A program made the translations under genes and the position numbers. This document shows positions 24,158-58,580 of a stretch of DNA of 64,000 nucleotides, piece by piece. Position 1 is the stretch's first letter; every line of letters starts with the position of its first letter. This DNA comes from a virus. Taxonomy: Duplodnaviria; Caudoviricetes. The notes under the pieces are model-generated. The model saw only the letters and a list, made by a program, of their open reading frames with translations. It was not told where the DNA came from and ran no database searches. The stretch covers positions 64,001 through 128,000 of the IMG/VR virus record IMGVR_UViG_3300033463_000004, one strand, 5' to 3'.

Positions 24158-24733
24158 ATGCCAACGATTGGTGATGAAAATATTTCCTCGTTGTTGAATG
24201 AAGCAAATGGTCGTACTCGGTCATTCGTTGCTGAATGCATCAACGCATACAAAGCAATTCGATGGAAGACGGTATCGTTCATTATCCCGACTGAACCGAT
24301 ACCGTCACATCGTCCAAGATTATCTGGATATCGAGTATATGTGCCTGGCGCTGCAAAGAACCAAGCATTCTTCAATAAACATGTATTACCAACATTGAAT
24401 GGTTTGTTTATTACAACACCATGCAAAATTAAATCTGATATTTTTGTAAAGACACCGAAATCGTTTAACATGGCTCAGAAGATTCTTGCGGAGATGAGAA
24501 TCCTTCGTCCATGGGGTAATGTGGGTGATGTAGATAACTATGAAAAGAGTATCTATGATCAAATGCAACCAAACGAAAAACGTGGACATGTTGGTATTAT
24601 GCAAAATGATAGTCTTATCATTGAAGCGCACACGAATAAATATTATTCAATTACACCCCGTACAGAGATCACAATTTCTTTTATGGGAAAGATTCCAGAT
24701 AAATTGAAGAAAGTACTTCGCATGCGGGATTAA
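24158..24733 (+). CDS. rusA: RusA-family Holliday junction resolvase
   Basis: 'P.PSHRPR' N-terminus, catalytic 'GDVDNYEKSIYD', 'NDSLI', 'K.YS..PRTEI.I'. Confidence 0.85.
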   Translation: MPTIGDENISSLLNEANGRTRSFVAECINAYKAIRWKTVSFIIPTEPIPSHRPRLSGYRVYVPGAAKNQAFFNKHVLPTLNGLFITTPCKIKSDIFVKTPKSFNMAQKILAEMRILRPWGNVGDVDNYEKSIYDQMQPNEKRGHVGIMQNDSLIIEAHTNKYYSITPRTEITISFMGKIPDKLKKVLRMRD

Positions 24734-30497: not shown

Positions 30498-30549
30498 ACT
30501 TCGAATTAAAGCTTATATAAGCTTAATTTTAAAATAAGGAGTGATAAAT

Positions 30550-31506
30550 ATGTTGAAAGTTTTCAAGCCACGATTAACCCGTCCTGAAAAAGGTAATAAG
30601 TTTTATATTACAATAGATACAGGCGGTTACTCTGCAGCAATTGTTGGTAATCCCATTGATACATTATGCAATGTACTCGCAAACTGTGTTGGATATGCAT
30701 ATGGTCGTTTTAATGAAATTTCCAATAATACAAAAATGTCATATCTTGCACCAAGAAATGCAGAAGTATTTTGGGATATCGCAGGTCAACAAGGGTTTGA
30801 AAGATCGCAGACGCCAAAGATTGGTTCATGTATTGTTTGGCAAAAAGGTCCAACAAGAGACCCAAAAGGCGAAGATGGTGCTGGTCATGTTGCCATTGTT
30901 GAACAGGTGATTGACGAGAATACTGTTATCACATCTGAATCCGGTTATGGTTGTGCAACACCATTCTGGACACAAACAAGAAAACGTGGAGCTGATGGAA
31001 ACTGGGGAATGGGAACTGATTATAAATTCCTCGGTTTCATTCATCATCCTGATATTGATGCAAATACGAGAATTTATACTGGTGGAGACACTCCTGTTGA
31101 ACCGTATCTCGTTATGCTTGAAGCAGGTACACCGATTTACAATATCAACGGAACAGTTGTCGTTCAGTGTGGTACAATTACTGTTACGACAAAATATACA
31201 ATCGTTGATGAAATGATTGTTGATAAAAATCTGTATGGTAAATTGAAATCTGGTGCAGGCTGGGTTATTTTGAGGGGAATTGTTCCGAACCCGACTCCGA
31301 CTACTATGCAGCTTGGTGATTCTGGAGAGAATGTAAAACAACTTCAAAAGAAACTGGTTGAACTCGGATATATGTATAAAGATTGTGTGACAAGTACATT
31401 CGATAGATTAACATTATCCGGAGTAACCGGTTATCAGCTAGAAGCCGGACTTGCAGTTGATGGAATCTGTGGTCCAGCAACACAAAAATCATTAGGCTTA
31501 ATTTAA
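30550..31506 (+). CDS. Endolysin: CHAP + SH3-like + PG_binding_1
   Basis: 'NCVGYAYGR...NA..F...PKIGSCIVW...GHVAIVE...SES'; 'GKLKSGAGWV'; 'GDSGENVKQLQ..L..LGY...Q...GL.VDGICGPAT'. Confidence 0.9.
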   Translation: MLKVFKPRLTRPEKGNKFYITIDTGGYSAAIVGNPIDTLCNVLANCVGYAYGRFNEISNNTKMSYLAPRNAEVFWDIAGQQGFERSQTPKIGSCIVWQKGPTRDPKGEDGAGHVAIVEQVIDENTVITSESGYGCATPFWTQTRKRGADGNWGMGTDYKFLGFIHHPDIDANTRIYTGGDTPVEPYLVMLEAGTPIYNINGTVVVQCGTITVTTKYTIVDEMIVDKNLYGKLKSGAGWVILRGIVPNPTPTTMQLGDSGENVKQLQKKLVELGYMYKDCVTSTFDRLTLSGVTGYQLEAGLAVDGICGPATQKSLGLI

Positions 31507-31829: not shown

Positions 31830-34800
31830 TTATTCAAACATAGCAACGAGTTGTTCGATTAACATATCATCTTCATCACTGAATTCAGTATCTTCATCAT
31901 CGAAATAATAATCAATATATTCTGGAAATTCTTCAGAAATTTGATATGCTAAATTTCGAATAGAAGATGACTGTACTTTGATATCACTTACAAGAAACTC
32001 GTCTATGTAATTTGATAAATATTCCAGACCAGTTTTAATTGTGTATGTATTGATAATTTGTCCCTGATACACTTGATCAGGTGTTGTATTATCAAATATT
32101 TGTGCAGGATTTTGATCGAAGTCTGGAACAAACATGGGTCCATCAATTTTTTCATACGGAATATTTTCAAATAATTGTGGTGTGATATAATCTTCACCAT
32201 AACCACCGAACATTGATGGATCACTCATGAATTCAAGTATCGGAGATGGGTCATAGATTTCTGGAATATCAAAAGCGCTTGGAGTATATTCGTCACCAGA
32301 ACCGACATATCTAATTACAATTCCTTGGTTATAACCGTTGGAATTATATTTATTTATATCAATTCCAGATCCATTTGTAGGCATTGAACCATGGCTCAAA
32401 TAATAATTCGCGATGTTCTGACCCTTTACTGATTCAGAATTATTAGTAGGATCACCACCATTGAATCCATACCATTGTCCACCATATTGGAAAGCTGCCA
32501 TATGTGCATGCCACATAGTTTGATCATATCTACCATTTGCTTGTGATGGAAGTGTTATATCACCTGCTTGATATGTCCCATCATTTGCAATTATCCAATC
32601 TTTTGATTTTTTGCCATTTTTATCATAGATATTTGGGCGACCATCAGAGTTATTGATACCCCAACCACCGGGAGTACCATTTGCCCAACCCATATACATA
32701 TTTCCTTGATATGTGTTTGTATAATTACGATTGTTGTCTTTTGGTAAATAATAACCCATACGTTTTACTATTGCTGCCTGTGTACCAGTACACATCGCGG
32801 ACATATTATCAATGACCATTCCATCATCAAAGCGAACATTTTTCAATATAGCGCCGTGACCATATGGTCCATGATCTCGTTTTTGTGCTTTCAATGCAGC
32901 AAGAAATGTTTCAGATGCTGCAGTCAATACTTTCTTTTTTCCTCTTAATGAAGATGACGATGCTGACGATTTACCTTTTGATCGTTTTGTGGTTGACAAT
33001 GTTTTTGATTGTTGCTTCGTTCTGGATATTGAATTTGCTGACGATACCGATGTTCCATTATATCGCCAAATTTTTTTCATACGATCCATACCGCCATTGT
33101 ATACCCATGGTATATCTTTTTTGCCGTTCAAATATGCTACTGCTGCTGCAGGAGATTGAGCAATACCGCAACCACCATCGAGACCACGAGGAGAACCCTG
33201 CAGATCAACAATTGGCATTGTAAGGTGACCACTATTGTTACCTGGTGGCGGTGGAAATGCGAGAATATCACCCGGTTCTAGTTTTGATTTAGAATACTCC
33301 AAAACTGTCCAGTCCTTTGATGGAGTCTTTGCAGTAGGTGAATCGTATATTAATGTGTTTTTAGTCTGAGTACCCCATGTTCCTGAACGTAAACCAATAT
33401 CACCAACATCATACCCATTTGCATCTCTGAGAGTATAACCAAGTTCTTGTATTGCAGCGGACATTGTACCAGAGCAGTCTGGACGAATTTGTCTGGTATG
33501 ACCTGAACGAGTTGTAATTGAATTTGGCCATAAACCGTTGCTATATGTTACTGATGGATTTGTTTTTTGATATGCTTCGAAAATCTCGGCAGCTGATTCA
33601 ATTAAATCATCTTTTCCAAGATTACCTGAACCTTTGCGTGAAGAAGATTTTTTAACCTTACGACGTTTTGCTTTTGTCTTTGGACCGACATATCTGATCC
33701 AATAACTCATCGGTGGAGCAATTGCACCGAGTTGATCTGTCCATTGATGATCATTGAACCATCTTCCTGGAACTGGATTCAATTTGGTATCGGTTGGGAA
33801 TTGTCCATGTTTCAAATAGTATTCACCAAGTTTAACAGAACTCGCGAGAGAATCGTCAGCACCACCATTGAAACCAAACCAGTTTCCATCAGCACCTTGA
33901 TATGCTCCCATATGTGCGTGTGCGCCACCGGTTCCATTGAATGTAATGTCACCTGCTTGCGCTCCGCCAGGTCCTCCAAATATCCAATCCTGAGACACAT
34001 TACCATCACGATCATAGATGTTTGGATGACCATCAGAAGCACCCCAACCCCATGAACTTGAACCATGTTGTCCACTGACTTGATACATTTGGTCGTCACC
34101 TTGATATGTGTCAGAATATTGTCTACCATTTGATGGTAAATAATATCCCATACGTTTGACAATTGCTGCCATCATTGCTGTACAATGGACAGGCGAAATT
34201 TTGTCAATAACCATACCATCATCAAATTCAACATCAGTGACTGATGTACCATTCCAATGAAGATCACTACCTGCACGTTTTCTAACAGCAGTAAATACTT
34301 CAGATGCAGCTTGGAAAATATCTCCAGTGCCACCTTCATAATAGTATTCGTCATCGTAATATTCATCATCATCACGTGCTGCATTTATAAAATCTGCAAG
34401 AGCTTGGAAAAGTTTTCCAGAATTTGATTGTGCTTTTTTGTCTTCTTCTTTAAAGAATTTTTCAAAACTATTTTCACCATTATCATCTTTTCCAAATAAT
34501 GTTTCATTAATAAGACTTATTGCATCTGACTCTGTAGCGTCTGCATTTTTCTTTACTCGTTCTTTGACGATCTCAGCAGCGGCCATTGTCCAGTATTTTT
34601 CTTTGTCCTTTTCATATCTAGCACGATATTCTTCATCGGTTTCACCATGAAGTTGTTCATTGTTTATTGTTGATTTAAACAATTCAAAAGCACGATCATC
34701 AATTTCTTTACGTGCATCATCATCCAATCCAGCCGCGTCAAATTGTGCTTTTGTATAAGCTTCCTTATCTTTCGCCGTCTGTAGTTTTGTTTCGGTATCT

Positions 34801-37800
34801 GCCTGATCAATATCAAATAATGAGAAAATTCCAGAAGCTAATGATTTAATATTTGACAAAGCTTCTTGTACTGAATCATCAAACTTATATGGTGCACGTT
34901 CATCTCCAGAACCATAAATACCATCCATCGGAGATCCATTTAATTTGTTAATCGTTGTTTGTTTTTGATTTACAAGTTTCTTTTCTGTCTCATCACTCGT
35001 TGATGTCTTTTCACTCGTTCCAAGTAACTTATTCATTGAACTTGTGGCAAGAGCAATACTACTCTTCAATCCAGAAGTAACATTATCAACACCTGATTTG
35101 AATAAGTTCTCACCGGATTTTGCGATTTCTTTACCTTTTTCATATAAAGAACCACTGCCAAGTGATAATGTTAATACACCGATTGCTGATAATATCCAAC
35201 CATGAACGGTGATGATTGTTCCAAGACCAACTTGAAGAATACCTGTGATAATCTGAAACGCATTTGCAACACCTTGAATGATGGGAACAATTACAGTTTC
35301 CATCACAGCGGTCAACGGAACAACCAATATATCCAAAACATCTGTAACAATTTTGAGAATCGGTTTTAATATATCCATCATCTGTTCAAGCAATGGACCA
35401 ATTGCTTCGAATATCGGTTGCATGATGTCGATAATTGATATGACTATATCAGAAAGATAACTTACAATCTTATTCAGAACTTTCCCAATTGTTTTCATTG
35501 TTGGTTTGATTGCTTTGTACAATGATTGGAAAGCTTTGTTCAAAGGTTTCAATGAATTCGTCAATACTTTATGGATCATATCAGTAATCAGTTTGAAACC
35601 TTTCATTGATACAACAACTGTTAGAACAGCTTGTAATATTCCAGAAAGAACACCAAGTAATCCACCAAGTATCTTACCCATATCAAATGCAAGTGATTTC
35701 TTTTTCTGTTTCTGTTGTTGTTTTTTCTTTTCTTCTTCAGCCTTTTGTTTATTAAGAGCTGTATCAAATAAATTCTTAAATTGATCTTGAATATCATCAA
35801 TCACATTAAAAATCTTATTGAATACAGATCCCATAGGTGACGTTGAACTTAATATAGAATCAATCTTTTCTGATGATTGATCTGATAATGAACTTGGTGT
35901 AATTTTTGATTTTTCTTTTTGATGTTTTGAAAATGATGAAAGAACACCTTGACCAAATTCACTCTTGCCAAGTTTATCTTTTATCTTATTGCCAATATTT
36001 GAAATTGCTTTTCCTGGAGCGCTTTCTTTCAGCATATCTGTTAAACCACCAAACAATGAATCTGAATCATTAGTGGTAGCTGTCTTTTGTTCTGATTTCG
36101 TCGTTGTTTTTGTATGCTGCCGGGGCTTGACACGAGTTTTAATTCCAGTGAATCCTTCTTTAACAGCGTTTGCTCCAGTCTTCATTTTATTTACAGAATC
36201 AGAAAGCATGGATTTGACAAAGTTTGTCACACTATTATTCAAAAACAGTTTTGCACCAGAAATAATTTTTGTAAAGAAACTTTTTGCAGTTGATAATATA
36301 AACAGAAATGTTTTACCAATGAATGATTTCTTTTCTTCCTTCTTAGAACTGCGTTCGATTGAACCTGACACAATTGTTTTCAATCGTTGTTGAACATTAA
36401 AATTCCTCATTGTTCCAAGTTGCTGTGTAATATTATTTGCGTTTGTATTTCCAGAAGATGCAGACGCCATTAACATATACGATGCTTCATTGACTTTTTC
36501 TTCATCTTCTTCATCTGTTTTATTTTCAGATGTCTTTTCTGGCACAGTAACAACTGGTACATCCACATTCGTTTCAAGTTGTGGTTTTTCATTCATTTTG
36601 TCACGAGTTGTATGTTGTGCTTTAATAGATTTGAATCCTTTATTTGCATTAACAAAATAAACATTTACGCCACGATTCAGAATTTCAAATATCTTAGATA
36701 TAATCAATAAACGATTTCGTTGTTGTCCCATTAAAAGATTTTCCATTACATCAGTAGCGGAATCTTCGATTTTTTCATTCAAATCAGCAAAAGATGTAAT
36801 GGGTTTATCCAGCTCTTCTAATTGTTCTTTTGATAATGATTCACGTTGAACATATCCATCCCGAATCAATTGTCGAAGAGTCTTCCCCTCAAATTCAAAT
36901 CGAGATGAATCATACTTCATACGTTCCAACGCACGTAAATCAAACATTTTTTGTGTAAATTGTACATCAGTCACTTTTGAAGATTCTGCAATATTTCGTT
37001 TTGCTGCATTATCTAAACCATACAACGCACGATTAATTGCTGATGCAAAATTGGATCGATAATTTTTATCAGCAATCAATTTTGATGAATAAACTGATAT
37101 AATATCCAACCAATATTTTGCAGTTTTGCCTTTACCTTTTGCAAGTAATTCTGCAATGTGTAAATGTAATCCTTGATCTCCGCCATTGATAAAGAAATCT
37201 GGACTCAAATGATTCGTGGAATGTTCTGATGAATATATGTAATACACATATTGTTGCACCATAATACGGAGAACTTCACGCATATCTGCTGATGTAAATT
37301 CATCATCAATATTCTTTACAGATTCATATGTCTCTTTAATTTGTGATTCTGAAATAGATGTAGAATCGAAAGTAACATCAATCGATTTTACAAATTTATT
37401 TTCAATTGCAGCAGTTGTTAAACTTCCATTCGCAGCAATGTTATATTTCTTTCCAGTCAAAGCATTCGTAATCTGTTTCAAATAATCAGGAATAATCGAT
37501 ATGATTGTTTTACGAACCATATTATCGAATATAGCCGGATTTCGATCAAAACCACCTTCAACAAATCTTCCATAATCTTTTACATACGAACCATAAGGAT
37601 TCATATGTTTCTTTATGAATGGAATCTCAAATATTTTTGTAAGTAAATTATGCTGGAATGATTGTACTTTTTCATTTACTTTTCTATCAATAACAGTCAA
37701 TCCAGTCATATCCATCAATGATTCTGTAATTGATTTCGTAACTTGCTGGCGGTTATTCTTGATATAATTTGATAACGAATCAACTGTAAGTCTTCCAGAT

Positions 37801-38366
37801 GATTGATGTAATTGATTCTTTCTTTGTTCTTTTCGTATTTGGTCCAACATGTTGGATGAAGATTGAATTAATAAATCCAATTTCTTTGAAATTTCTAATG
37901 TGGTTGAATCAATCGTACGTAAACTTGCTAATGTTTCTGCAGAACGATCATTGATTGTACTGATAATCATCGATGCATTATATAATTTCGATTCAATTTG
38001 TTTTGATGCAATCTTATGCATTTCACGATTACGTGCACGTATAAGATCTTTCATGTTATCTGCATCAAGAACTTTTGTTTCTTGTTCTTCTGAATTATTA
38101 TATCTGAAACCCGCATCAAATTCTTCATCGTCAGTTTCTAATGGAGAAGTTGTATTATATGGATCTTCAGATTTATTTGAGAACCATTGGAATACAGAAC
38201 GAATATGTTTGTTATTACGTTTTAATTCAGAAACTTGAAGTGACGTGTTTTGATATGTTCCCATGATACTCGACTTAATCTTTGAGGCGTCTGTTGCAAT
38301 TTGTCGAACGGTTGTGTACGTCGACGAATGTGACAATATATCACTCATCAAGTTTGCCATATTCAT
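31830..38366 (-). CDS. Giant tape-measure/ejection-like protein B with three NlpC/P60/CHAP-like domains
   Basis: Amphipathic TMP-like repeats; Cys-His modules 'HCTAMMAAIVKRMGY..AGDI..HAH', 'PDCSG..PGDIL..GH' and 'MCTGTQAAIVKRMGY..AGDI..HAH'; start at 38366 or 38360. Confidence 0.75.
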   Translation of the reverse strand: MNMANLMSDILSHSSTYTTVRQIATDASKIKSSIMGTYQNTSLQVSELKRNNKHIRSVFQWFSNKSEDPYNTTSPLETDDEEFDAGFRYNNSEEQETKVLDADNMKDLIRARNREMHKIASKQIESKLYNASMIISTINDRSAETLASLRTIDSTTLEISKKLDLLIQSSSNMLDQIRKEQRKNQLHQSSGRLTVDSLSNYIKNNRQQVTKSITESLMDMTGLTVIDRKVNEKVQSFQHNLLTKIFEIPFIKKHMNPYGSYVKDYGRFVEGGFDRNPAIFDNMVRKTIISIIPDYLKQITNALTGKKYNIAANGSLTTAAIENKFVKSIDVTFDSTSISESQIKETYESVKNIDDEFTSADMREVLRIMVQQYVYYIYSSEHSTNHLSPDFFINGGDQGLHLHIAELLAKGKGKTAKYWLDIISVYSSKLIADKNYRSNFASAINRALYGLDNAAKRNIAESSKVTDVQFTQKMFDLRALERMKYDSSRFEFEGKTLRQLIRDGYVQRESLSKEQLEELDKPITSFADLNEKIEDSATDVMENLLMGQQRNRLLIISKIFEILNRGVNVYFVNANKGFKSIKAQHTTRDKMNEKPQLETNVDVPVVTVPEKTSENKTDEEDEEKVNEASYMLMASASSGNTNANNITQQLGTMRNFNVQQRLKTIVSGSIERSSKKEEKKSFIGKTFLFILSTAKSFFTKIISGAKLFLNNSVTNFVKSMLSDSVNKMKTGANAVKEGFTGIKTRVKPRQHTKTTTKSEQKTATTNDSDSLFGGLTDMLKESAPGKAISNIGNKIKDKLGKSEFGQGVLSSFSKHQKEKSKITPSSLSDQSSEKIDSILSSTSPMGSVFNKIFNVIDDIQDQFKNLFDTALNKQKAEEEKKKQQQKQKKKSLAFDMGKILGGLLGVLSGILQAVLTVVVSMKGFKLITDMIHKVLTNSLKPLNKAFQSLYKAIKPTMKTIGKVLNKIVSYLSDIVISIIDIMQPIFEAIGPLLEQMMDILKPILKIVTDVLDILVVPLTAVMETVIVPIIQGVANAFQIITGILQVGLGTIITVHGWILSAIGVLTLSLGSGSLYEKGKEIAKSGENLFKSGVDNVTSGLKSSIALATSSMNKLLGTSEKTSTSDETEKKLVNQKQTTINKLNGSPMDGIYGSGDERAPYKFDDSVQEALSNIKSLASGIFSLFDIDQADTETKLQTAKDKEAYTKAQFDAAGLDDDARKEIDDRAFELFKSTINNEQLHGETDEEYRARYEKDKEKYWTMAAAEIVKERVKKNADATESDAISLINETLFGKDDNGENSFEKFFKEEDKKAQSNSGKLFQALADFINAARDDDEYYDDEYYYEGGTGDIFQAASEVFTAVRKRAGSDLHWNGTSVTDVEFDDGMVIDKISPVHCTAMMAAIVKRMGYYLPSNGRQYSDTYQGDDQMYQVSGQHGSSSWGWGASDGHPNIYDRDGNVSQDWIFGGPGGAQAGDITFNGTGGAHAHMGAYQGADGNWFGFNGGADDSLASSVKLGEYYLKHGQFPTDTKLNPVPGRWFNDHQWTDQLGAIAPPMSYWIRYVGPKTKAKRRKVKKSSSRKGSGNLGKDDLIESAAEIFEAYQKTNPSVTYSNGLWPNSITTRSGHTRQIRPDCSGTMSAAIQELGYTLRDANGYDVGDIGLRSGTWGTQTKNTLIYDSPTAKTPSKDWTVLEYSKSKLEPGDILAFPPPPGNNSGHLTMPIVDLQGSPRGLDGGCGIAQSPAAAVAYLNGKKDIPWVYNGGMDRMKKIWRYNGTSVSSANSISRTKQQSKTLSTTKRSKGKSSASSSSLRGKKKVLTAASETFLAALKAQKRDHGPYGHGAILKNVRFDDGMVIDNMSAMCTGTQAAIVKRMGYYLPKDNNRNYTNTYQGNMYMGWANGTPGGWGINNSDGRPNIYDKNGKKSKDWIIANDGTYQAGDITLPSQANGRYDQTMWHAHMAAFQYGGQWYGFNGGDPTNNSESVKGQNIANYYLSHGSMPTNGSGIDINKYNSNGYNQGIVIRYVGSGDEYTPSAFDIPEIYDPSPILEFMSDPSMFGGYGEDYITPQLFENIPYEKIDGPMFVPDFDQNPAQIFDNTTPDQVYQGQIINTYTIKTGLEYLSNYIDEFLVSDIKVQSSSIRNLAYQISEEFPEYIDYYFDDEDTEFSDEDDMLIEQLVAMFE

Positions 38367-38404
38367 TCACTTCCTTTCAATATAAAATTATAATTATGAA
38401 TACA

Positions 38405-38426
38405 GAAGGGCTCGTGAGAGCCCTTC
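38405..38426 (-). terminator. Hairpin between the giant paralogs
   Basis: gaagggctc-gtga-gagcccttc; weak U tail. Confidence 0.55.
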
Positions 38427-38445
38427 CATATCCATTTTATATACA

Positions 38446-41400
38446 TTATCCGACAGACAGACGTTCGACCTGTCTGGGGATACCTTGGTCTGGAAAAGCA
38501 GCTTCATTTGATTGCTTACTTGTCCGTCCTGTTGTGGATGCAGTTTGTCCACGTTTTTTACGTTCTTTCATCAACTTTAACATTCCGGCCAACAACGATT
38601 CGATCTCTTCGGAACGAATGTTGTACGTATTCGACATTAACATATCGATGACAGCATCACCGGTATGATCAACTGCATAATTATTTACGACAGTCGGATA
38701 TGCTTGTTGTTCAATTTGATCCATTGAGAACAATGATGACAATCCTTGATCGAATCCACCACCATAATTTGTAGATGGTATAAATACAGAAGATACATCA
38801 CCATTGCCTTTATTATTCAGCATGTCAACATATGATTGACGTCTTGAATGATCATTTGTTTCAGTATATGTTGTCGTACCTGTTGTAGATGAATTGTTAA
38901 TCACATTTATACCATTATTCACTTGCGCAGATGAAACATCTGGCCAATAAATTGAGCCATCTTTATTTACTCTGATTCTACCTGCAGATTTATTATTCTT
39001 AAAATAAACATTTCCATCTGATGTATCATAGTATAATTTATATCCATTATGATATGCATTATTGTTGAAATCATTCGCCATGTCACCACGGGACAATTTA
39101 TTTGCATAAGAATTTGAATAATTTGTATAAATAGCTTGCCAAATTTTACGCAAATCAACATCAGATGTTCCTGTTGTAATAACACTACTCTGTTGTGCCG
39201 TACTACTTGATGAATTCTTAAGTTGTTGCTCACCGTTGATGAAACTTCTTGCATTTTCACCAGCGTGTGTTTTATAATAACTATCTGTATCAACATAAAT
39301 CTTCATGAACTTTCCGCTACCTAAGTTTGCTTGTCGTTCAACATATTTATGTTTATTTGTAAACGCTTGTGCATCAGCAGTTGCATTTCCAGTTGGTACA
39401 TAGTAATCAAATAATTTTTGATTAGCTTTGTTATAGGCCGTACCAGTTCGTCCTGTTATTGTTGTTGAATATCTATATGGGGTACCATCCGTTTTATCAG
39501 ACAATGTGGTGTATGATGATTGAGCCGATGTTGCTGCAGCCGGAACAGTTGCGCCGAATCCTTCAGATTCAGTCAATGATGTTGGTGATGTTGATATTGT
39601 CGATGATGTATTATAACGAATATTAGATCTTCTACCACCTTCATCAATATACCCTTCATCAAGCAACCAGTTGTATACACCAACAGCTGTTCCAATATAC
39701 TTACGCGGACCTTCCATTTGGTGAATGACTGCAGGAACCAAAGCTGTACGATACCAATGTTCAGATCCTTCAATCAAATCTTCTTTATTCATATATGGTC
39801 CATATCGATCACCGAAGTCAAGAGCCCATCCGTCTCTACCTGTCGCAGCCATATATGCTCGTAAATCAGCATCGTCATATTGGTTATGTGACACAAGAGC
39901 ACGACCGTCTTTTGTATCCTCGTCAAAATATGTGCGTTGGATATATTGCAATTGTTTTTCAACTGTATCGCCATAATCAACACTCGTATCAACCCAGTTC
40001 ATTAGACCGACTGCCTGTTGACTATTCGAGTCATATGTGACATTTAAGAGTGATTTATCACCCCATAATTTATCACCACCGTCTTCCCAGATGCCCATAG
40101 ATGTTATAGCAGCAACTTCCGGACCTGTTAAACCAGCATCAAAAGCAGTTTGCATGAATTTTGAAACACCCGTTTTGTTTTTATGGAAAGACCAAATATC
40201 ACCAGCTTCAAGATCACCCTCATATTCAATTTCGCCGTATGGTGCATTACTACGACTACCTTCATGCCATTTAAAGAATGCATGAGGGTTCAAAATTTCA
40301 CCAGTATCGCCATCCCGGATTTCATAGTGCAAATGCTGACCTGTCGATTCACCGGTACTTCCCATGATACCGAGTTGATCGCCGCCATAAACGTAGTCAC
40401 CGACTTTAACCAATGGACCAGGATCTTCGCGCATATGTGCATAAAGGTGAATGTCTCCACCTTCGTCCTGAATTTTGACATAAGTTCCGTATCCGTCGCC
40501 ATATGATGTCTTAGCAGTTCCTATAACTACACCATCGGTTGTTGAAAGTATTGGGATATCACCGCCTAAAGTGAAGTCAACACCGGAGTGTGCACGTCCA
40601 TCATTAGTACCTTCTGCATCCTTATCAACAGGACGTCCACGCCATCTGAACGGACTTGACATCATAGTTCCCAATAACATCTTATCCATCCACTCACCCA
40701 TGACTGTGTTCGGAACAGCTGTACTAGTCCATCCAGTTGCATCATTTTCAAATACAGAAGGCTGATATTCATCTGTATACAACCGTGCACCATTATCAGA
40801 ATAGAATCCAGCATCTTCGTCATCATCCCAATAGTCACCAATCATATCTTGTAACTTGGAGAAGAACATTCCTTGTGATACACTGTCATTGTGTTTCTTC
40901 ATGCCTTCTGTTAAGCTGTCAAACAATCCACCTTTTCGTTCACCGGTTTCAGAATCAAATTCTCCAAGATTCTTTTTGATAAATCCTGGTAATGTTTCAT
41001 CTGTATAGCCAGCAGCTTTCTTGGCAGCATCTTCGAGACGTTTTGTACCAGCGACAGTGATATAGTGATTGTAAGTTGTGGTTTTCTTAAATCGTTTTTC
41101 ATATTCAGCGTTCGTTTCGCCTTTATATTTTGGATTTTCTTGTTTAAATAATTCAAATGCTTCTTTTTCTAATTTTTGTTTTTCTTCATCTGTCATATCA
41201 CCAAGATCAGTCAATACTTTATCATATTTCAATTTATCTTGTTCATTCTTGAGTTTTGCTTCAGTGCTTTCTTCACCTGTAAAGATTCCAATGATACCAC
41301 CGACAAGATCTTTCAATGTTTGCAACGCTTCTTGCACTTCGTCAGAGAACGAATATGGATATGTAGCATCACCAGATCCGTATACATTGAAAGCACCACG

Positions 41401-44400
41401 CGGAACATCACCGGAACCATACAAACCAGCAACAGAATTTGCTGCAAGTGAAGAAATTGAACGTCGTTCAATACGTCCATTCATTGGGTTAGAAACAAAT
41501 GCTGTTCCACCAGAAGAACCGATAACATTCATAAAGTGATTATTACCACTTCTGGTTGTGAAGTCTGTACCACTTCCTATCACAGTGATTGGATTACGTG
41601 GTGAAGCTTGTTTTAATGATGCAGGTGTAACACCACCGGCACGGAGATTCATACCCATGGATCCAGCAGTGTTCATAAATCCAGCCACAGAAGTTCCCAT
41701 GTTTGGATTATATGCACCAGAAGATGCCATAGCAGAAGTTAATCCACGCGCATTAACTGATGTACCTGAGCGTCTTGCATAAGCATCTGCTAATGCAATA
41801 GGTCCACAACCACGAGAATTCATATTCATGAAGTTTCCATAGCGGTTCTGGTTTGCTCCTGCACCACCATAGATGTTTCTGATATCACCATTACCATATA
41901 CGCCATCCATCGGTGAACCATTTAATGTGCCAATAATTTCTTGACGTTTTTGGACTTTTGTTTCTTCTTCAGGTTCCTCATTAGAATCATTTGTACCTAA
42001 TAAATTATTCATTGTATTTGTAGCGAGAGCAATACTACTCTTCAATCCAGAAGAAACATTGTCTACACCTGATTTGAATAAGTTCTCACCAGATTCTGCA
42101 ATTGCTTTACCTTTTTCATATAATGACGTTCCACCGAGTATTGATGTCAACACACCAATACCAGTCAATGTCCATCCGAGAACAGTTATGATTGTACCAA
42201 GTCCAACTTGAAGAATACCTGTGATAATTTGTAATGAGTTTCCAACACCTTGTAGAATAGGAACGACCACTGTCTGCATGATGGCAGTCAACGGAACAAC
42301 AAGTATGTTGATCGTGTCAGTGATCATATCAAGAATCGGTTTCAAAATTGTAAGCATTTGTTCGAGTAACGGACCAATTGCTTCAATGATAGGTTGAATA
42401 ATCTTGATAACAGATTCAACAATCTCAACAACATATCCGACAAGTTGTGTTAATACACGTTGGATCGTTTTCATAACAGGTTTGATGGCCTTATACAACG
42501 ATTGGAAAGCTTTGTTCAGAGGTTTCAAAGCAGTTTTCAAAACATTCATCGCAAGATTCATAATGGATTTTACTGCTTTCATGGACAATACAACTGTCAA
42601 TACAGCTTGTAATAATCCACCAAGTATTCCAGTAATACCACCAAGAATCTTACCAATGTCGAAACCAATACCTTTCTTTACAGCTCCAGCGGCAGCAGAT
42701 GCAGCAGAACCAGTAGCTCCACCAGTCATGTCAGTTGTTGCAGGCATTTGTACATTTTGTCGTTGACTTGAAACATTTTCATTGATATCAGCTAAGCTAA
42801 CAGTTGATTGTGATGATGTATCATCACCAATTGATGGCATAGAAGAACCGGTACCAGATATAGTTTCGGATTTACCAGATATTTTTGCAATACCTTCTTT
42901 TACGACGTCACCGATTCCAGCAAGTTTATTGACGATCGTTCCAAAGATAGATCCAGTACCGTCTTTGCTCTTCAAGATATCAACAATCGATTTTGTCATC
43001 TGATCACTCAGCGTCTGAGGTTTCATTTCTTTATTTGATTTTTTCTTTTCAAATGCAGATATAAAACCTTTACCAAAATCAGTTTGTTTAAATTTTTCGA
43101 CAAAATTGTTCATTGCTCGGGTGATTGCATTACCCTTTTTATTTTCTTCTTTTTGTTCGTTAATGTCACCACGTATCTTTTTGATTTCTTGTAATACTTC
43201 AGTATCACGACCACTCTTGATATCTTTACCTTCGCCCATATCTGATAATACAGGTGCACCAAGATCAATCAATGATGACGCAGAAACATCTGTCGTCAAC
43301 GTCTGTTTTGTTGATGTTGGTGTTTCATTGATATCAGATAACATACCATTCAAACGTCTGGATTCTTTATTTTCTCTCATTCTACCAAAGATACCAGATG
43401 ATTCATCCGAACCAAAGAATCCTTCTTTGATAGCATTTGCACCACCAAGAATTCTTTGTCCTGATTGTCTCAAACTGTTGATGATAGGTGAAAGTAATTT
43501 CTTTCCAAGTGTCGTAATGAATGTTTTTGCAGATTGTAATTTTGGTAAAATAAATCCTTTGACGATTCCGAATCCCCAAGTCAATATTTTACCAAGTTTT
43601 GATTGTGCTGGTTTCTTATTTTCTGCACGTTGTAAAGTTCCTTCAACAACTTTCGACAAACGCGCTTTCAGTTTTGGATTCTTGATTTCACTGATCTGTT
43701 GCATCAGTGGTCCAGTATCTTCTTTGGTATCACCATCTTGAACAGATGCATTCATTGCAGCCAGAACAGAATCAGCAATGTATTTATCATTCTTATCGTC
43801 TTCAGAATCACCTAATCCCGCAGCAGTACGTTGTGCCATTACACGATTATAGTCGATTGAAGCAGAATCAATCGTCATTGCTTTTAATGAAGTCATGTCA
43901 GTAGAAAGACGTTCCTTCATTTTATTGATTGGCTTCATCACAAAATTCTTTGCAGAATTAATAGTATCCGACAAAGGATTACCAGATGATGGCATATCTG
44001 GTTGCTGATGATCACCATCTGTTTCTTCACCAGAAATTGTTGGAATTTGAACAGATGGGATCGGAGTAGGTTGTTCATGAGTCAGAGTTGATTGTGGTGA
44101 TGCTGGTGTGTTTTGCTGTGCTTTCTGTAATTCAATTGGTACATATGGTTTATTTCTTCGACGTACAGCATATACATTAACACCACGATTCAGTATTGTG
44201 AATATAGATGCCAAGTAATCAACTGTTGATGCTGTTACATCACGGAAAGTTACACCAATATTACCAATCAACTCAGATTGTTTAATACGTTCACGACGTG
44301 CTTGTTTCAATGCTTCGTCGGATGCACGTGAATTTGGATCAACCCATTTGGGAATATCGCTTCGTTTGATTTCACCTGCTTCAGCACGCTCATTCCATGT

Positions 44401-45978
44401 ACGGTCATCTTTACCAGAAGCATTTTTAACATATCCACCAACAATATTACTGACCATTTCATCGGTAATTTCGCCAATGTCATATGTAACAGTTGCAGTT
44501 TCAGCATATCGTTTTGCACGAGAATGTGAACTTGTTGCGCCTTGACGGATTGTACGAGCAAAGGCATCACGTGAATTACTGTCAGTCATCAATTTCGTTA
44601 TAATCAATTGAATGACTGATGTCCAATATGCACGACCGTGTTTGTTGTTGTCACCTTGTGTCAAATAATCAATTGCTTGATCATTGACTTCAGGCAATCC
44701 ACCATTTTCAAACATTTTTCCTTGTGTTGCACGACCAGATACACGCATCTCATGGAATATGTATAAAGATACAAGAACACGTTGTGCAATAAACACATCA
44801 TTCTTATCAATGTCAGAAGATGCTTGTTTCATCATTTCGTCTATTCGACGTGAATTAAAACCACTTTGAATTGTTGATGAAAATACATTTTGGAATTCAC
44901 GAGGACGTTCCGTCGACAAACTACCTTCGGATGATACATACAAATTCTCACCAGTTAACGCAGCAGTGATTCTTCTCAAATAGCCAGGAATAACATCAAT
45001 AATCGTTTTACGTGTCATATTATCAAAGACAGCTTTTTCACGATTGTATTGATTGTCGATATATGTTGAATAATCGCGATTTTTTTCACGTGCAGACAAA
45101 TCACCAAATAACTTTTTGAATTTATCCCAATCCAAAAGTTTTGATAATAAATTATTTTGTGCATTGTTTACACGTTCATCGATTGCATCACGAATTTCAT
45201 CAATTGAACGATTATCGAGAATTCGAAGTTTTTTATCCGCAGCCAAACCGGTCATCAAACCTGCTAAAGAACCAAAACCTTCCGCTTTATTACTTGATGC
45301 TTGGAATATCATCGGAAGCATCTCTGCACCAGTTTTCAACAAACTTAATTCAGTTTGATAAGGAAGATTTTGTTTCAAATAATTAATAGTATTCCCGAGT
45401 GTCAAATTTCCAGATGAATCGAATAATGATTGTTGACGTGCCCGTTCTTGTGTTGCAACTGTACTTAATTCGATTAATTTATCAAGTTTTCCGGAAATCG
45501 TTTGTAAAGATGAATTGATATTACCCAAAGATGATAAGATTTCCGATGAACGGGTATTCATCGTCGTAATGATTTCAGATGCAGTCATCGCAGAAGCTTC
45601 TGTTTGTTTACCTGCAATCTGATACATGGAGCTGACTTGACCTTTGGCAATATCCTTCATGCCATCATAATCAAGAACTTTTGACGACGATGTATCCGAG
45701 TCTCCATCATCAAAATTAAATCCGGCATCAAATTCATCATCATTATCATTTTCAAATGATGATTTCTCACCGAATTCAGATCCACGATGGAAGAACCAAT
45801 CTGTTACCTTTTTAAAACCAGATGAATTTCGAATCTCACGATATTTATCTTGAGCAGTCTTAGCACCACCCATCAATGTATCACGTATATTCTCTGCATC
45901 TGATTTCAAATCCGATAAAGATTCAGGAGCAACTGATGAAACAAAACCCTTCGTGAAATCAAGCATCAAATTTGCCAT
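38446..45978 (-). CDS. Giant tape-measure/ejection-like protein A with C39-like peptidase, M23 peptidase and lysozyme-like domains
   Basis: 'RGCGPIALA..HFM..VSNP' (C39-like); 'HSGVD..YAHM..STGQHLHYE' (M23); 'AAI...IWED...GLMNW...QL.YI' (phage tail lysozyme-like); GAAAGGGGTG RBS favours 45978. Confidence 0.8.
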   Translation of the reverse strand: MANLMLDFTKGFVSSVAPESLSDLKSDAENIRDTLMGGAKTAQDKYREIRNSSGFKKVTDWFFHRGSEFGEKSSFENDNDDEFDAGFNFDDGDSDTSSSKVLDYDGMKDIAKGQVSSMYQIAGKQTEASAMTASEIITTMNTRSSEILSSLGNINSSLQTISGKLDKLIELSTVATQERARQQSLFDSSGNLTLGNTINYLKQNLPYQTELSLLKTGAEMLPMIFQASSNKAEGFGSLAGLMTGLAADKKLRILDNRSIDEIRDAIDERVNNAQNNLLSKLLDWDKFKKLFGDLSAREKNRDYSTYIDNQYNREKAVFDNMTRKTIIDVIPGYLRRITAALTGENLYVSSEGSLSTERPREFQNVFSSTIQSGFNSRRIDEMMKQASSDIDKNDVFIAQRVLVSLYIFHEMRVSGRATQGKMFENGGLPEVNDQAIDYLTQGDNNKHGRAYWTSVIQLIITKLMTDSNSRDAFARTIRQGATSSHSRAKRYAETATVTYDIGEITDEMVSNIVGGYVKNASGKDDRTWNERAEAGEIKRSDIPKWVDPNSRASDEALKQARRERIKQSELIGNIGVTFRDVTASTVDYLASIFTILNRGVNVYAVRRRNKPYVPIELQKAQQNTPASPQSTLTHEQPTPIPSVQIPTISGEETDGDHQQPDMPSSGNPLSDTINSAKNFVMKPINKMKERLSTDMTSLKAMTIDSASIDYNRVMAQRTAAGLGDSEDDKNDKYIADSVLAAMNASVQDGDTKEDTGPLMQQISEIKNPKLKARLSKVVEGTLQRAENKKPAQSKLGKILTWGFGIVKGFILPKLQSAKTFITTLGKKLLSPIINSLRQSGQRILGGANAIKEGFFGSDESSGIFGRMRENKESRRLNGMLSDINETPTSTKQTLTTDVSASSLIDLGAPVLSDMGEGKDIKSGRDTEVLQEIKKIRGDINEQKEENKKGNAITRAMNNFVEKFKQTDFGKGFISAFEKKKSNKEMKPQTLSDQMTKSIVDILKSKDGTGSIFGTIVNKLAGIGDVVKEGIAKISGKSETISGTGSSMPSIGDDTSSQSTVSLADINENVSSQRQNVQMPATTDMTGGATGSAASAAAGAVKKGIGFDIGKILGGITGILGGLLQAVLTVVLSMKAVKSIMNLAMNVLKTALKPLNKAFQSLYKAIKPVMKTIQRVLTQLVGYVVEIVESVIKIIQPIIEAIGPLLEQMLTILKPILDMITDTINILVVPLTAIMQTVVVPILQGVGNSLQIITGILQVGLGTIITVLGWTLTGIGVLTSILGGTSLYEKGKAIAESGENLFKSGVDNVSSGLKSSIALATNTMNNLLGTNDSNEEPEEETKVQKRQEIIGTLNGSPMDGVYGNGDIRNIYGGAGANQNRYGNFMNMNSRGCGPIALADAYARRSGTSVNARGLTSAMASSGAYNPNMGTSVAGFMNTAGSMGMNLRAGGVTPASLKQASPRNPITVIGSGTDFTTRSGNNHFMNVIGSSGGTAFVSNPMNGRIERRSISSLAANSVAGLYGSGDVPRGAFNVYGSGDATYPYSFSDEVQEALQTLKDLVGGIIGIFTGEESTEAKLKNEQDKLKYDKVLTDLGDMTDEEKQKLEKEAFELFKQENPKYKGETNAEYEKRFKKTTTYNHYITVAGTKRLEDAAKKAAGYTDETLPGFIKKNLGEFDSETGERKGGLFDSLTEGMKKHNDSVSQGMFFSKLQDMIGDYWDDDEDAGFYSDNGARLYTDEYQPSVFENDATGWTSTAVPNTVMGEWMDKMLLGTMMSSPFRWRGRPVDKDAEGTNDGRAHSGVDFTLGGDIPILSTTDGVVIGTAKTSYGDGYGTYVKIQDEGGDIHLYAHMREDPGPLVKVGDYVYGGDQLGIMGSTGESTGQHLHYEIRDGDTGEILNPHAFFKWHEGSRSNAPYGEIEYEGDLEAGDIWSFHKNKTGVSKFMQTAFDAGLTGPEVAAITSMGIWEDGGDKLWGDKSLLNVTYDSNSQQAVGLMNWVDTSVDYGDTVEKQLQYIQRTYFDEDTKDGRALVSHNQYDDADLRAYMAATGRDGWALDFGDRYGPYMNKEDLIEGSEHWYRTALVPAVIHQMEGPRKYIGTAVGVYNWLLDEGYIDEGGRRSNIRYNTSSTISTSPTSLTESEGFGATVPAAATSAQSSYTTLSDKTDGTPYRYSTTITGRTGTAYNKANQKLFDYYVPTGNATADAQAFTNKHKYVERQANLGSGKFMKIYVDTDSYYKTHAGENARSFINGEQQLKNSSSSTAQQSSVITTGTSDVDLRKIWQAIYTNYSNSYANKLSRGDMANDFNNNAYHNGYKLYYDTSDGNVYFKNNKSAGRIRVNKDGSIYWPDVSSAQVNNGINVINNSSTTGTTTYTETNDHSRRQSYVDMLNNKGNGDVSSVFIPSTNYGGGFDQGLSSLFSMDQIEQQAYPTVVNNYAVDHTGDAVIDMLMSNTYNIRSEEIESLLAGMLKLMKERKKRGQTASTTGRTSKQSNEAAFPDQGIPRQVERLSVG

Positions 45979-46068: not shown

Positions 46069-46827
46069 TCAGAAGAACGTGATCCAATCAATTTCATCGA
46101 AATGAAATGTATTGGTCCACTTTTCAACCAATTGATTTCTCGCATCTTCTGCTCCAGACCAGTCATCAATGCGAAGTTGAATTTCTTTGAATGCAGACCC
46201 CACTTGATTCATGTTTTTCAACATGCTGTACAATGTTCTCTTGACATCTAATGTCGCTAATTCAATAAATGATTCACGACATGATTCTGGAATTGTTTCC
46301 AACGATGGATCATGATCGCATTTTACAACAAAATGAACCAATGCATCAGCAGGATAATCAAACAACCGGATCTTGTTAAAACCCAACCATTCAGAAGTCT
46401 GTGGTCGAGAAGTAACACCCGCATATTTATTAATAGCAGCTCCAGTTTGTGTTGCATTCAAAATATCTTGTGGATAGTATGAACCAAATCCAACAAATGG
46501 AGATCCAACTGTAAATGAATTGGTTGCGACAACATCACTGCTTAATTGCGATGATGCAATACATGCTTCTGCATATTGCACCGGAGTACGTGTTAAATCA
46601 CCAGGTAATACATAGATTCCCAGTTTCTTCGACATATCATCCGGAGATCGGAGATTCTTGATGGTTTCATAACCTTCTCGAATCCATGGTTTGAATTGAG
46701 AGAAGGTGCGAACAGATGTTTTGATAATATCTCTCAGCACGTTCTCAGTAGGTTGATCAAACGGCAAAGCAATTGTCTCCAATCCCAATGTCATTTTGAT
46801 ATCACCAATTACATCGGAAATATTCAA
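46069..46827 (-). CDS. Putative neck/head-tail adaptor protein (T4 gp13-like)
   Basis: 'I..IK..LG...I.L' N-terminus and 'LA.LDVK..LY..LK...I.L.IDDW..A...R..L...W' C-terminus; TTG start. Confidence 0.5.
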   Translation of the reverse strand: MNISDVIGDIKMTLGLETIALPFDQPTENVLRDIIKTSVRTFSQFKPWIREGYETIKNLRSPDDMSKKLGIYVLPGDLTRTPVQYAEACIASSQLSSDVVATNSFTVGSPFVGFGSYYPQDILNATQTGAAINKYAGVTSRPQTSEWLGFNKIRLFDYPADALVHFVVKCDHDPSLETIPESCRESFIELATLDVKRTLYSMLKNMNQVGSAFKEIQLRIDDWSGAEDARNQLVEKWTNTFHFDEIDWITFF

Positions 46828-57692: not shown

Positions 57693-58580
57693 TCATTTAA
57701 GTCCGCGATTCATCAGAATATCCAATGCTTCACGTCTGACTTCGCCACGAAGTGGAATACGCATTTTGCATCCATCGGCTTGTTCAACAACAATGGATTC
57801 ATTTTGAATACCCATCAATTCATCAACCGAAATTTCGAACGATTCGCAGATTGCACGCATATCTTCAGATTGCTCTGAACAATATTGTGCAAGATTCTTC
57901 AAGAAGATGACACATTCAGATGTTTTCTCCGGAATGACACTTTCTTGATGAATGATTGGTGCAACATCGCCATCTGCTCCTTCATGTGAAGGATAATCAA
58001 CCATGTCATATGTGATAACTTTTGTAACACGCATGTTTGGTTGATTATATCCCGCATTCGGAATCATTGTACCGAGTAAACGAACAGAGAATGATGGGAC
58101 CATACCGAGATCAATAATCTCTTCAGCAACTTGTTGACCACATGCACATCCAGGATCGGTTGTGATAATCGCTTTATAACGATCACCTTCCAAACGATTC
58201 TTTCTGAGAATGTGTGAACAACGTGTCGGCTCTGGAATTGTCATACGAATATCAGTTAAACGTTCACCGGCAATATCCGGATTCGGATGATTCAATTCAC
58301 CACGCCAATCATTCTTACGTTTTAATTCCGCAATACGTTCATCTTTATCCACGACAGCACAATAGTTGACGGGATCATAGCGGCGTCTCATGCGGTTATA
58401 ACAGCCGAATGTTTGAACAGTTGCATCAAATTCGACATATGCATGCCCATTCACAGAACGGAACTGTTTGAAACCACGGGGATCATCCTTATAACTTGCA
58501 AGACCACATTCAATTGGTGCTTCTTGCACATAACACGCAGTCTCATACTTGTTGCTCTGTGTGCTTTTCTTTACAAGCAT
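57693..58580 (-). CDS. Prohead core protease (T4 gp21/phiKZ gp175-like)
   Basis: 'NR..RRY', 'GELNHP', 'PSFSVR', 'ITYDMVDYPSH' with His/Ser/Asp catalytic motifs. Confidence 0.9.
   Translation of the reverse strand: MLVKKSTQSNKYETACYVQEAPIECGLASYKDDPRGFKQFRSVNGHAYVEFDATVQTFGCYNRMRRRYDPVNYCAVVDKDERIAELKRKNDWRGELNHPNPDIAGERLTDIRMTIPEPTRCSHILRKNRLEGDRYKAIITTDPGCACGQQVAEEIIDLGMVPSFSVRLLGTMIPNAGYNQPNMRVTKVITYDMVDYPSHEGADGDVAPIIHQESVIPEKTSECVIFLKNLAQYCSEQSEDMRAICESFEISVDELMGIQNESIVVEQADGCKMRIPLRGEVRREALDILMNRGLK

Follow-up and report, generated by a model that had tools for sequence, protein, structure and literature searches.

The locus described here raises the question why two neighbouring giant proteins carry different peptidoglycan hydrolases on a common scaffold, and why a short glycine-rich motif, G-x-G-D, recurs at the module junctions of both. 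The two genes, A and B, lie in tandem on the minus strand of a 64,000-nucleotide stretch of a tailed-phage genome (Duplodnaviria; Caudoviricetes), below called the window. It comprises bases 64001-128000 of the IMG/VR record IMGVR_UViG_3300033463_000004, which has a length of 262,694 bp and is 98 % complete. A and B are tandem paralogs with differing peptidoglycan-hydrolase cargo. An insertion in A is a C39 peptidase domain of the double-glycine type with an intact catalytic triad, hence a predicted peptidase; this module was missing from the domain list for A in a first-pass annotation of the window. The motif copies at the junctions are candidate cleavage sites. To the proposal that A and B are self-processing tape-measure-like polyproteins, with the C39 peptidase cutting A in cis and B in trans, we assign an even chance.

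Pairwise alignment of A and B, the check suggested in the first-pass annotation, revealed three blocks of similarity by BLASTP: the N-terminal ~650 amino acids (aa) with 29 % identity (E 9e-57), the hydrophobic core with 67 % identity (A1124-1370 versus B912-1160, E 2e-92) and the linker following the motif with 34 % identity (A1532-1691 versus B1150-1325, E 1e-20). The C-terminal tails were related at the profile level only, the profile of the B-type tail matching A 2409-2465 with an E-value of 7.7e-6. The description of tandem paralogs with a common N-terminus, a middle part resembling tape-measure proteins and a short C-terminal segment was thus confirmed. Hydropathy segments in the core of A were located at ~1111-1136 and ~1215-1282. 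PHROG tape-measure families matched the hydrophobic core only (A 993-1321, spanning the core; E 4.6e-5 to 4.8e-8), a region of biased composition. In the N-terminal scaffold the most conserved element was a 20-residue motif, FDNMTRKTIIDVIPGYLRRI, with 10/20 identical and 17/20 similar residues to positions 468-487 of phiKZ gp181 (pairwise E 0.002). The PHROG matches together with this 20-residue match may point to a location of A and B in the phage tail.

The alignment of A and B stopped at the YGNGD of A (residue 1362) and resumed at the second YGSGD of A (residue 1534), both of which aligned to the single YGSGD of B (residue 1152). The 172 residues of A without a counterpart in B represent an insertion exactly bounded by copies of the motif. 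In 29 aligned modules from homologs a Gln, RGCGP, GNNH, VSNP and a closing GLYGSG were invariant, the latter in 29/29 modules and so to the same degree as the catalytic residues; the Cys-His-Asn triad was likewise invariant in 29/29. In a wider set of 223 modules the Cys was conserved in 222, the His in 221 and the third triad residue, as Asn or Asp, in 221; this third residue was located 16 positions past the His (His1481 to Asn1497). Pfam recognized 16 of the 29 homologous modules as Peptidase_C39_2 (E<=1, best E 4.3e-6) and eight as Peptidase_C39. An AlphaFold model had a well-defined module core with a per-residue confidence (pLDDT) of 85-90 and disordered motif-bearing flanks (pLDDT <50). 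Foldseek placed this model closest to the double-glycine peptidases ComA (5xe8, 3k8u), PCAT1 (7n87, 6v9z) and LahT150 (6mpz) in the PDB, with a target template modelling (TM) score of ~0.7 and E-values of 1e-4 to 1e-3. All structural neighbours in the ESM Atlas that shared a common Pfam family belonged to C39 or C39_2. Profile searches of the PDB sequences with the C39 module, the lysozyme-like domain of A and the NlpC/P60-like domain of B returned spurious repeat or low-complexity matches only. Among the relatives, a subclade of large proteins (P0091-P0102, 2,500-3,070 aa) possessed a second C39 module within the N-terminal scaffold (~590-830) that often ended in glyG[SGTH]G, with or without a following Asp. 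Distant giants (P0214-P0222, 2,200-4,750 aa) had two C39_2-like modules, no GSGD and linkers rich in GYG, GRG or GYGPG; they may use another motif in a peptidase-plus-site system parallel to that of A and B.

In the six-frame translation of the window G[SNT]GD occurred seven times, and 7/7 occurrences were inside A or B, whose open reading frames (ORFs) make up 3.7 % of the six-frame space. The wider pattern G[SNATG]GD was counted 16 times in ORFs of at least 50 aa in the 263-kb genome, with seven occurrences in A or B. The positions given for the motifs in the first-pass annotation were all exact. Across ~220 metagenomic relatives [LIV][YF]G[SNA]GD was located at three junctions: between core and C39 (m1), between C39 and the linker-cargo block (m2), and between cargo and tail (m3). 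The first copy was found in 70/90 homologs and started in 63 of them 1-3 residues past the core. For m2, present in 73/74 homologs, a start 1 residue past the C39 domain was observed in 65. The third copy, m3, was present in 76/87 homologs, 14-70 residues ahead of the tail profile. The consensus of these copies was [LIVT][YF]G[SNAG]GD. B-type homologs retained m1 in 15/15 cases despite the loss of the peptidase. The variable residue of the motif did not change in a clear concerted pattern across the three sites per protein; in m2 it was nearly always Ser. Another copy in B, GTGD, preceded the first NlpC/P60 domain by 5 residues in 10/14 B-types. This copy marks the beginning of a confidently modelled helix (residues 3-20 of the AlphaFold model, pLDDT ~88) and is not preceded by the residue pattern seen upstream of the other sites; it probably represents an element of another kind and was not counted as a site. 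In one further relative (P0221, 1,699 aa) S[YQ]G[TS]GD occurred nine times within residues 127-551, mostly at intervals of 47 residues, and of the C39-module profile just the C-terminal end was matched, eight times. A role of GxGD as active site of a presenilin/prepilin-type aspartyl protease was rejected on inspection, the motifs being situated in linkers outside the hydrophobic segments.

The sites might also be read by another protease, either a T4/phiKZ-type head protease or a host protease, in which case the C39 domain would act on host targets. Proteases of the phiKZ head type cut after an acidic residue with a small residue two positions before. Such an enzyme would read small-x-acidic in A and B, that is [S/N/A]-G-D followed by the cut; S-G-D fits this shape, and a head protease gene is located 12 kb upstream. 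However, none of the head-module ORFs of this genome, including those for the major capsid protein and the head protease, contained G-x-G-D, and for this reason the motif is not regarded as the site of the head protease. This reading would not account for the invariant first Gly or for the aromatic residue in front of it, and the motif travels with the C39 module in ~220 proteins. We consider a foreign protease improbable as the agent at these sites.

A C39 cut would fall at G-S|G-D if the double-glycine rule applies, or at Y-G|S under an AvrRpt2-like cleavage rule. The bond, its cleavage and the timing are predictions from sequence. Under the double-glycine rule, a cut after G-[S/N/A] would put hydrophobic residues at P4, P7 and P12 of both m1 and m2 of A: m1 reads L-N-G-S-P-M-D-G-V-Y-G-N|G-D, with L(-12), M(-7) and V(-4), and m2 reads L-A-A-N-S-V-A-G-L-Y-G-S|G-D, with L(-12), V(-7) and L(-4). 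Hydrophobic residues in positions -4, -7 and -12 are also what ComA and LahT150 recognize, together with Gly-Gly, Gly-Ala or Gly-Ser at P2-P1 (PMC6363468). The hydrophobic fraction was calculated over all unique sites per class, against a background of 0.29. It reached 0.99 at P4, 0.59 at P7 and 0.99 at P12 for m2; 0.49 at P4 (plus many Thr), 0.70 at P7 and 0.35 at P12 for m1; and 0.71 at P4 and 0.52 at P7 for m3, where P12 was not raised. An enrichment of hydrophobic residues at P3, P4 and P7 was observed in all three site classes.

The search with the core region retrieved 90 proteins of 1,400-3,800 aa. The C39 profile matched 249 representatives among 1.84 billion library proteins, 141 of them below E 1e-30; nearly all of the latter were 2,200-3,700 aa long and had the module at about residue 1,300-2,100. 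The family comprises at least 141 clusters at 50 % identity. Gene A (megablast) and the N-terminus and C39 module of A (tblastn) had no match in 50,697 GenBank phage records; being large yet absent from the deposited phage genomes, the family appears common but undescribed in gut and rumen jumbo phages. Architectures were assigned by module profiles built from A and B. A-type proteins follow the order core, m1, C39, m2, linker, M23 or CHAP, lysozyme-like or NlpC/P60, an unassigned region, m3 and tail; in B-types the order is core, m1, linker, GTGD, two to four NlpC/P60 domains, m3 and tail. A B-type gene was located directly downstream of an A-type gene in 7/7 loci examined. This arrangement was present in L007, L009, L010 and the contigs of P0016, P0030 and P0031, and likewise in L012 and L013. 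More distant phages, including L011, had a single A-type gene in an equivalent neighbourhood, and a phage with B only was not seen among the loci examined. Because A-only phages are the wider group, B is best seen as a derived duplicate, which according to the alignment has lost the peptidase by clean excision between motif copies.

This clean excision between YG[SN]GD repeats, together with the derived state of B in a wider group of A-only phages, would also suit a motif pair around the peptidase that is a mere recombination scar: B would have arisen by deletion between direct repeats, and the motif would have no biochemical role. A scar does not account for the retention of the motif at three junctions across relatives whose core regions drop to ~25 % identity, for the copy between cargo and tail, or for an invariance equal to that of the catalytic residues. 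We rate it as very improbable.

The observations are best accommodated by the following scheme of self-processing. The phage would be a phiKZ/AR9-like rumen jumbo phage, with A and B as giant paralogs that function in the virion as tape-measure or ejection proteins. Each would consist of five parts in the order N-terminal scaffold, hydrophobic membrane-inserting core, charged linker, variable peptidoglycan hydrolases and small C-terminal tail domain, to which A alone adds the C39 peptidase between core and linker. Sites of the form hydrophobic-x-x-[LIV]-[YF]-G-[S/N/A]-G-D at the three junctions would be cut by the C39 peptidase, in A in cis and in B in trans. By processing, the muralytic cargo and the C-terminal anchor would be detached from the hydrophobic, channel-forming scaffold. 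This reading is based on the intact C39 fold and triad, the motif-bounded insertion, the site pattern according to the C39 rule, the retention of m1 in B, the pairing of A and B, and the precedents of T5 and Tal. A release of wall hydrolases had been supposed in the first-pass annotation, and the embedded peptidase provides a concrete mechanism for it. In its fuller form, a virion-borne maturation in which a tape-measure C39 peptidase cuts itself and a peptidase-less paralog at YG[S/N]GD and so frees swappable wall hydrolases from a membrane-channel scaffold, the proposal falls slightly below an even chance.

Several observations weigh against self-processing. The third site class has preferences at P3 and P4 and a weak one at P7 only, and the invariant Gly and Asp at P1' and P2' have no counterpart in known C39 substrates. 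The own C39 copy of A scored 12.6-13.2 bits, the Pfam cut-off being 24. In one subclade, the glyG[SGTH]G that closes the secondary C39 modules is not followed by Asp. The tail location depends on weak PHROG matches in a compositionally biased region and on one 20-residue match to gp181. In the model the last beta-strand of the peptidase fold includes the GLY of m2, so that the conservation of m2 is partly structural. The ESM Atlas neighbours include C39_2 domains, some of them viral, fused to the wall-binding modules SH3_3, SLT or ChW, and the C39 domain could therefore be a wall hydrolase itself.

The last two points lead to another explanation: the C39-like module would be one more wall hydrolase at a fixed position, a papain-fold peptidoglycan peptidase, and the G-x-G-D motifs would be uncleaved structural joints such as a strand end, turns or helix caps, kept for folding or module docking. 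The endoisopeptidase PeiR and CHAP-type lysins were also among the PDB matches of the module, and the GTGD of B indeed starts a helix of high model confidence. The best PDB matches, however, were true double-glycine peptidases, and the module was never swapped, unlike every other hydrolase of the family. Uncleaved joints also do not explain that m1 was retained in all 15 B-types after loss of the module, that the motif recurs at the unrelated cargo/tail junction with the common preferences at P3, P4 and P7, and that the flanks bearing the motif are modelled as disordered. A structural role of this kind is in our opinion unlikely, and self-processing is the preferred reading in the following.

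The cargo of A and B consists of different wall hydrolases. The M23 peptidoglycan metalloendopeptidase expected in A was recognized by Pfam (PF01551). The adjacent domain (A 1910-2120) had been described as lysozyme-like. It is a real conserved domain, detected by profile in 35/90 homologs, with 24 aligned as A4. Its identity as a lysozyme was without support from Pfam (no significant match, in A or in 24 homologs), from the PDB sequences and from hhalign. An assignment to the phage tail lysozyme PF18013 by hhalign against PF18013-bearing segments was set aside at a probability of 1.3 %. Among the language-model neighbours of the domain, 30/30 protein-atlas feature matches were PF18013 clusters with a score of 0.92-0.93, with 142-155 features shared only. 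The three Cys-His amidase domains reported for B were corroborated: they are homologous to each other, and Cys, a GD pair, His and a closing RYVG were invariant in the aligned copies of two B domains and their relatives, the RYVG being replaced by RPDCSG in some copies of the Cys-His domain. The AlphaFold model of the first domain had a pLDDT of 81. Foldseek with this model found nothing below E 1 in the PDB; in VIA-align nearly all of the top 32 rows were CHAP and NlpC/P60 hydrolases (Z 7.4 to 5). The Pfam family NLPC_P60 matched the middle domain with 19.1 bits, below the cut-off of 23. As judged from the model, the Cys-His domains have the papain-like amidase fold of the NlpC/P60-CHAP superfamily.

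Across ~90-220 relatives the cargo comprised M23, CHAP, NlpC/P60, PF18013 lysozyme, SH3_3 and Amidase_2 domains. Two relatives, P0058 and P0059, had scaffolds with 92 % identity over 1,790 aa and tails with 87 % identity, the cargo in between being unrelated; this looks like a very recent cassette exchange. One of the two carried an NlpC/P60-like domain, the other M23 plus a lysozyme-like domain. The scaffold-plus-cassette design of the first-pass annotation is thus supported by a conserved scaffold and variable wall-hydrolase cargo, but the motifs are not at the cassette edges. The check set beforehand, whether cargo boundaries in homologs coincide with the motifs, was negative for most junctions. 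In five cargo-swap pairs, the left swap junction was at a motif in 0/5 and the right junction at m3 in 2/5 (P0001/P0025, P0056/P0057), in the other three 16-95 residues before m3 or far off. Most swap junctions were found where the linker ends, behind M23, or 16-95 residues ahead of m3. With the junctions mostly inside the cargo block, the motifs bound four units (scaffold, peptidase, linker-plus-cargo, tail) rather than single cassettes. A bracketing of the cargo by G[SN]GD, as originally described, hence applies insofar as the motifs are located at module junctions in nearly all relatives; they bracket the whole linker-cargo block and the peptidase. The layout of scaffold plus cargo may provide a natural inventory of virion-associated wall hydrolases that are interchangeable and have defined boundaries.

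On the minus strand, the gene order is head maturation protease and major capsid protein (757 aa), both upstream of A and B, then four small genes, then the giant ORFs A and B (Table 1). The gene directly upstream of A, coding for 252 aa, carried the PHROG label virion structural protein and a weak match to Pfam DUF7484. A gene for 252-253 aa was found in the equivalent position in each related locus examined (L012-L015). The product may serve A and B as chaperone or partner. Convergent on B is a gene for a 321-aa protein with CHAP and PG_binding_1 domains (Pfam E 1e-13 and 1e-11), and genes for 316-322 aa with this composition were equally placed in L012, L013 and the contig of P0030. It encodes a further wall hydrolase beside the giant pair, possibly a lysin. 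Downstream of the giant gene or genes in L012-L015 a conserved convergent gene cluster includes a RusA-family protein of 190-192 aa, whose counterpart in the window would be an ORF at ~24158-24733 on the plus strand. The Pfam sheath families PF04984 and PF17482 had no match in the genome, so that the tail module could not be located by that route.

Table 1. Features of the giant gene pair and its surroundings. Positions refer to the window; residues refer to the protein product.
Feature	Position	Strand	Residues	Remarks
Gene A	38446..45978	-	2510 aa	giant peptidase-bearing A-type, tape-measure-like; ORF and translation; 90 homologs with the core region
A, conserved N-terminal scaffold, including FDNMTRKTIIDVIPGYLRRI	44119..45978	-	1-620	29 % identity to B; profile match in 88/90 homologs
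A, scaffold motif FDNMTRKTIIDVIPGYLRRI	44965..45024	-	319-338
A, hydrophobic transmembrane-like tape-measure core	41896..42696	-	1095-1361	67 % identity to B
A, m1, (V)YGNGD	41884..41895	-		core/C39 junction
A, C39 cysteine peptidase, double-glycine type (predicted)	41419..41883	-	1366-1520	Cys1391, His1481, Asn1497
A, m2, (GL)YGSGD	41407..41418	-		directly after the last C39 strand
A, m2', second (V)YGSGD	41368..41379	-		13 residues past m2; alignment to B resumes here
A, charged helical linker common to B	40669..41367	-	1538-1770	profile match in 89/90 homologs
A, M23 peptidoglycan metalloendopeptidase	40309..40593	-	1796-1890	Pfam PF01551, E 1.2e-20, 74 bits, cut-off 28.7
A, conserved domain	39619..40251	-	1910-2120	possibly a divergent phage tail lysozyme (PF18013)
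A, Ser/Thr-rich region	38809..39588	-	2131-2390	no assigned function; profile match in 24 homologs; no Pfam match
A, m3, GNGD	38797..38808	-		cargo/tail junction; alignment to P0025 resumes exactly here
A, conserved C-terminal tail domain	38449..38796	-	2395-2510	profile match in 82-86/90 homologs
Gene B	31830..38366	-	2178 aa	B-type paralog without peptidase
B, hydrophobic core	34914..35702	-	889-1151	PHROG tape-measure match, E 4.8e-8
B, m1, (I)YGSGD	34902..34913	-		aligned to m1 of A from the left and to m2' of A from the right
B, GTGD	34320..34331	-		start of the N-terminal helix of the first NlpC/P60-like domain
B, three homologous NlpC/P60/CHAP-type Cys-His domains	32304..34319	-	1350-2021	1350-1600, 1617-1798, 1814-2021
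B, m3, (RYV)GSGD	32292..32303	-		cargo/tail junction
B, C-terminal tail domain	31833..32291	-	2026-2178	remote homolog of the A tail; profile
Head maturation protease	57693..58580	-
Major capsid protein	50369..52642	-	757 aa
Gene directly upstream of A	46069..46827	-	252 aa
CHAP + PG_binding_1 protein	30541..31506	+	321 aa
Putative RusA-family counterpart	~24158..24733	+		position approximate

Cleavage during assembly is a recurrent property of such proteins: gpH of phage lambda, pb2 of T5 and Tal of TP901-1 are all cut at this stage. To our knowledge, the protease acting on the tape-measure or tail-lysin proteins of model phages such as lambda and T5 has never been pinned down. The family described here puts a recognizable, triad-intact peptidase and its candidate sites in one polypeptide. 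If the self-processing reading is true, A would be without known precedent among phage tail and ejection proteins in carrying its own processing protease, and such a system could explain the cleavage of the tape-measure proteins in lambda and T5. Virion proteins with wall hydrolases, the processing of tape-measure proteins and polyproteins with embedded peptidases (PMC5512222) are already known. In the literature we found no description of a C39 peptidase embedded in a protein of this kind, of a site motif at three junctions or of a peptidase-less tandem partner. A literature search for C39 in tape-measure proteins or for double-glycine processing in virions gave nothing relevant; the lone mention of 'C39' did not refer to the peptidase family.

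The closest likeness in layout is found in T5 pb2, which has a long scaffold, a hydrophobic membrane-inserting stretch and a muralytic zinc-peptidase domain. In the course of tail assembly a cut after R1127 separates the hydrophobic stretch of pb2 from its muralytic motif (PMC10038345), at a position corresponding to that of m1 and m2 in A. It has 1,148 aa and one lytic motif; the protease is not encoded within pb2, and a host protease has been suggested (PMC10038345). In contrast, A and B have 2,200-2,500 aa, two to four hydrolases and a Gly-rich motif, and the cut is attributed to a C39 peptidase of its own in A, with B as a peptidase-less paralog.

With the C39 domains of ComA, PCAT1 and LahT150 the module of A shares the fold, the Cys-His-Asp/Asn triad and the spacing of 16 between the His and the third residue (His101 and Asp117 in LahT150; PMC6363468). 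As in the substrates of these enzymes, P2 of the candidate sites of A is Gly, P1 is small, and P4, P7 and P12 are hydrophobic. The C39 domains of ABC exporters are fused to a transporter, whereas the domain of A is embedded in a putative virion polyprotein and its activity is predicted. Its Gln precedes the Cys by 14 residues, not 6, and the candidate sites of A and B add an invariant Gly-Asp past the presumed cut.

Tal of TP901-1 and Tuc2009, a virion protein, resembles A and B in a Gly-rich motif ahead of the lytic domains, which in Tal ends in GGGD; processing of Tal at this motif gives rise to particles with or without the hydrolase (PMC11409707). In TP901-1 it is processed at NGGGNSGGGD just ahead of the lytic domain (PMC11409707). 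Tal differs as a baseplate fibre with a gp27-like N-terminus, no embedded protease and no tape-measure core. The gp181 of phiKZ (2237 aa, NC_004629, L016:4335-11048), a tail-associated peptidoglycan hydrolase, is likewise giant and expressed late, in a jumbo myophage; its wall hydrolase is C-terminal and it contains the match to FDNMTRKTIIDVIPGYLRRI, but it has no G-x-G-D, no C39 module and no other significant similarity to A. The gp181 family profile scored 3.3 bits; homology to gp181 was set aside, the single 20-residue motif being the only part that matched.

Polyvalent proteins, which are giant, multidomain and injected, resemble A and B in that an embedded peptidase is predicted to divide them into functional units (Iyer et al. 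2017, PMC5512222). Their peptidase is a metallopeptidase of the zincin type, and their domains serve anti-defence or DNA processing. In A and B Pfam found wall hydrolases and the C39 module only, which places them outside the polyvalent proteins: the two giants would combine a C39 peptidase and wall hydrolases on a tape-measure-like chassis.

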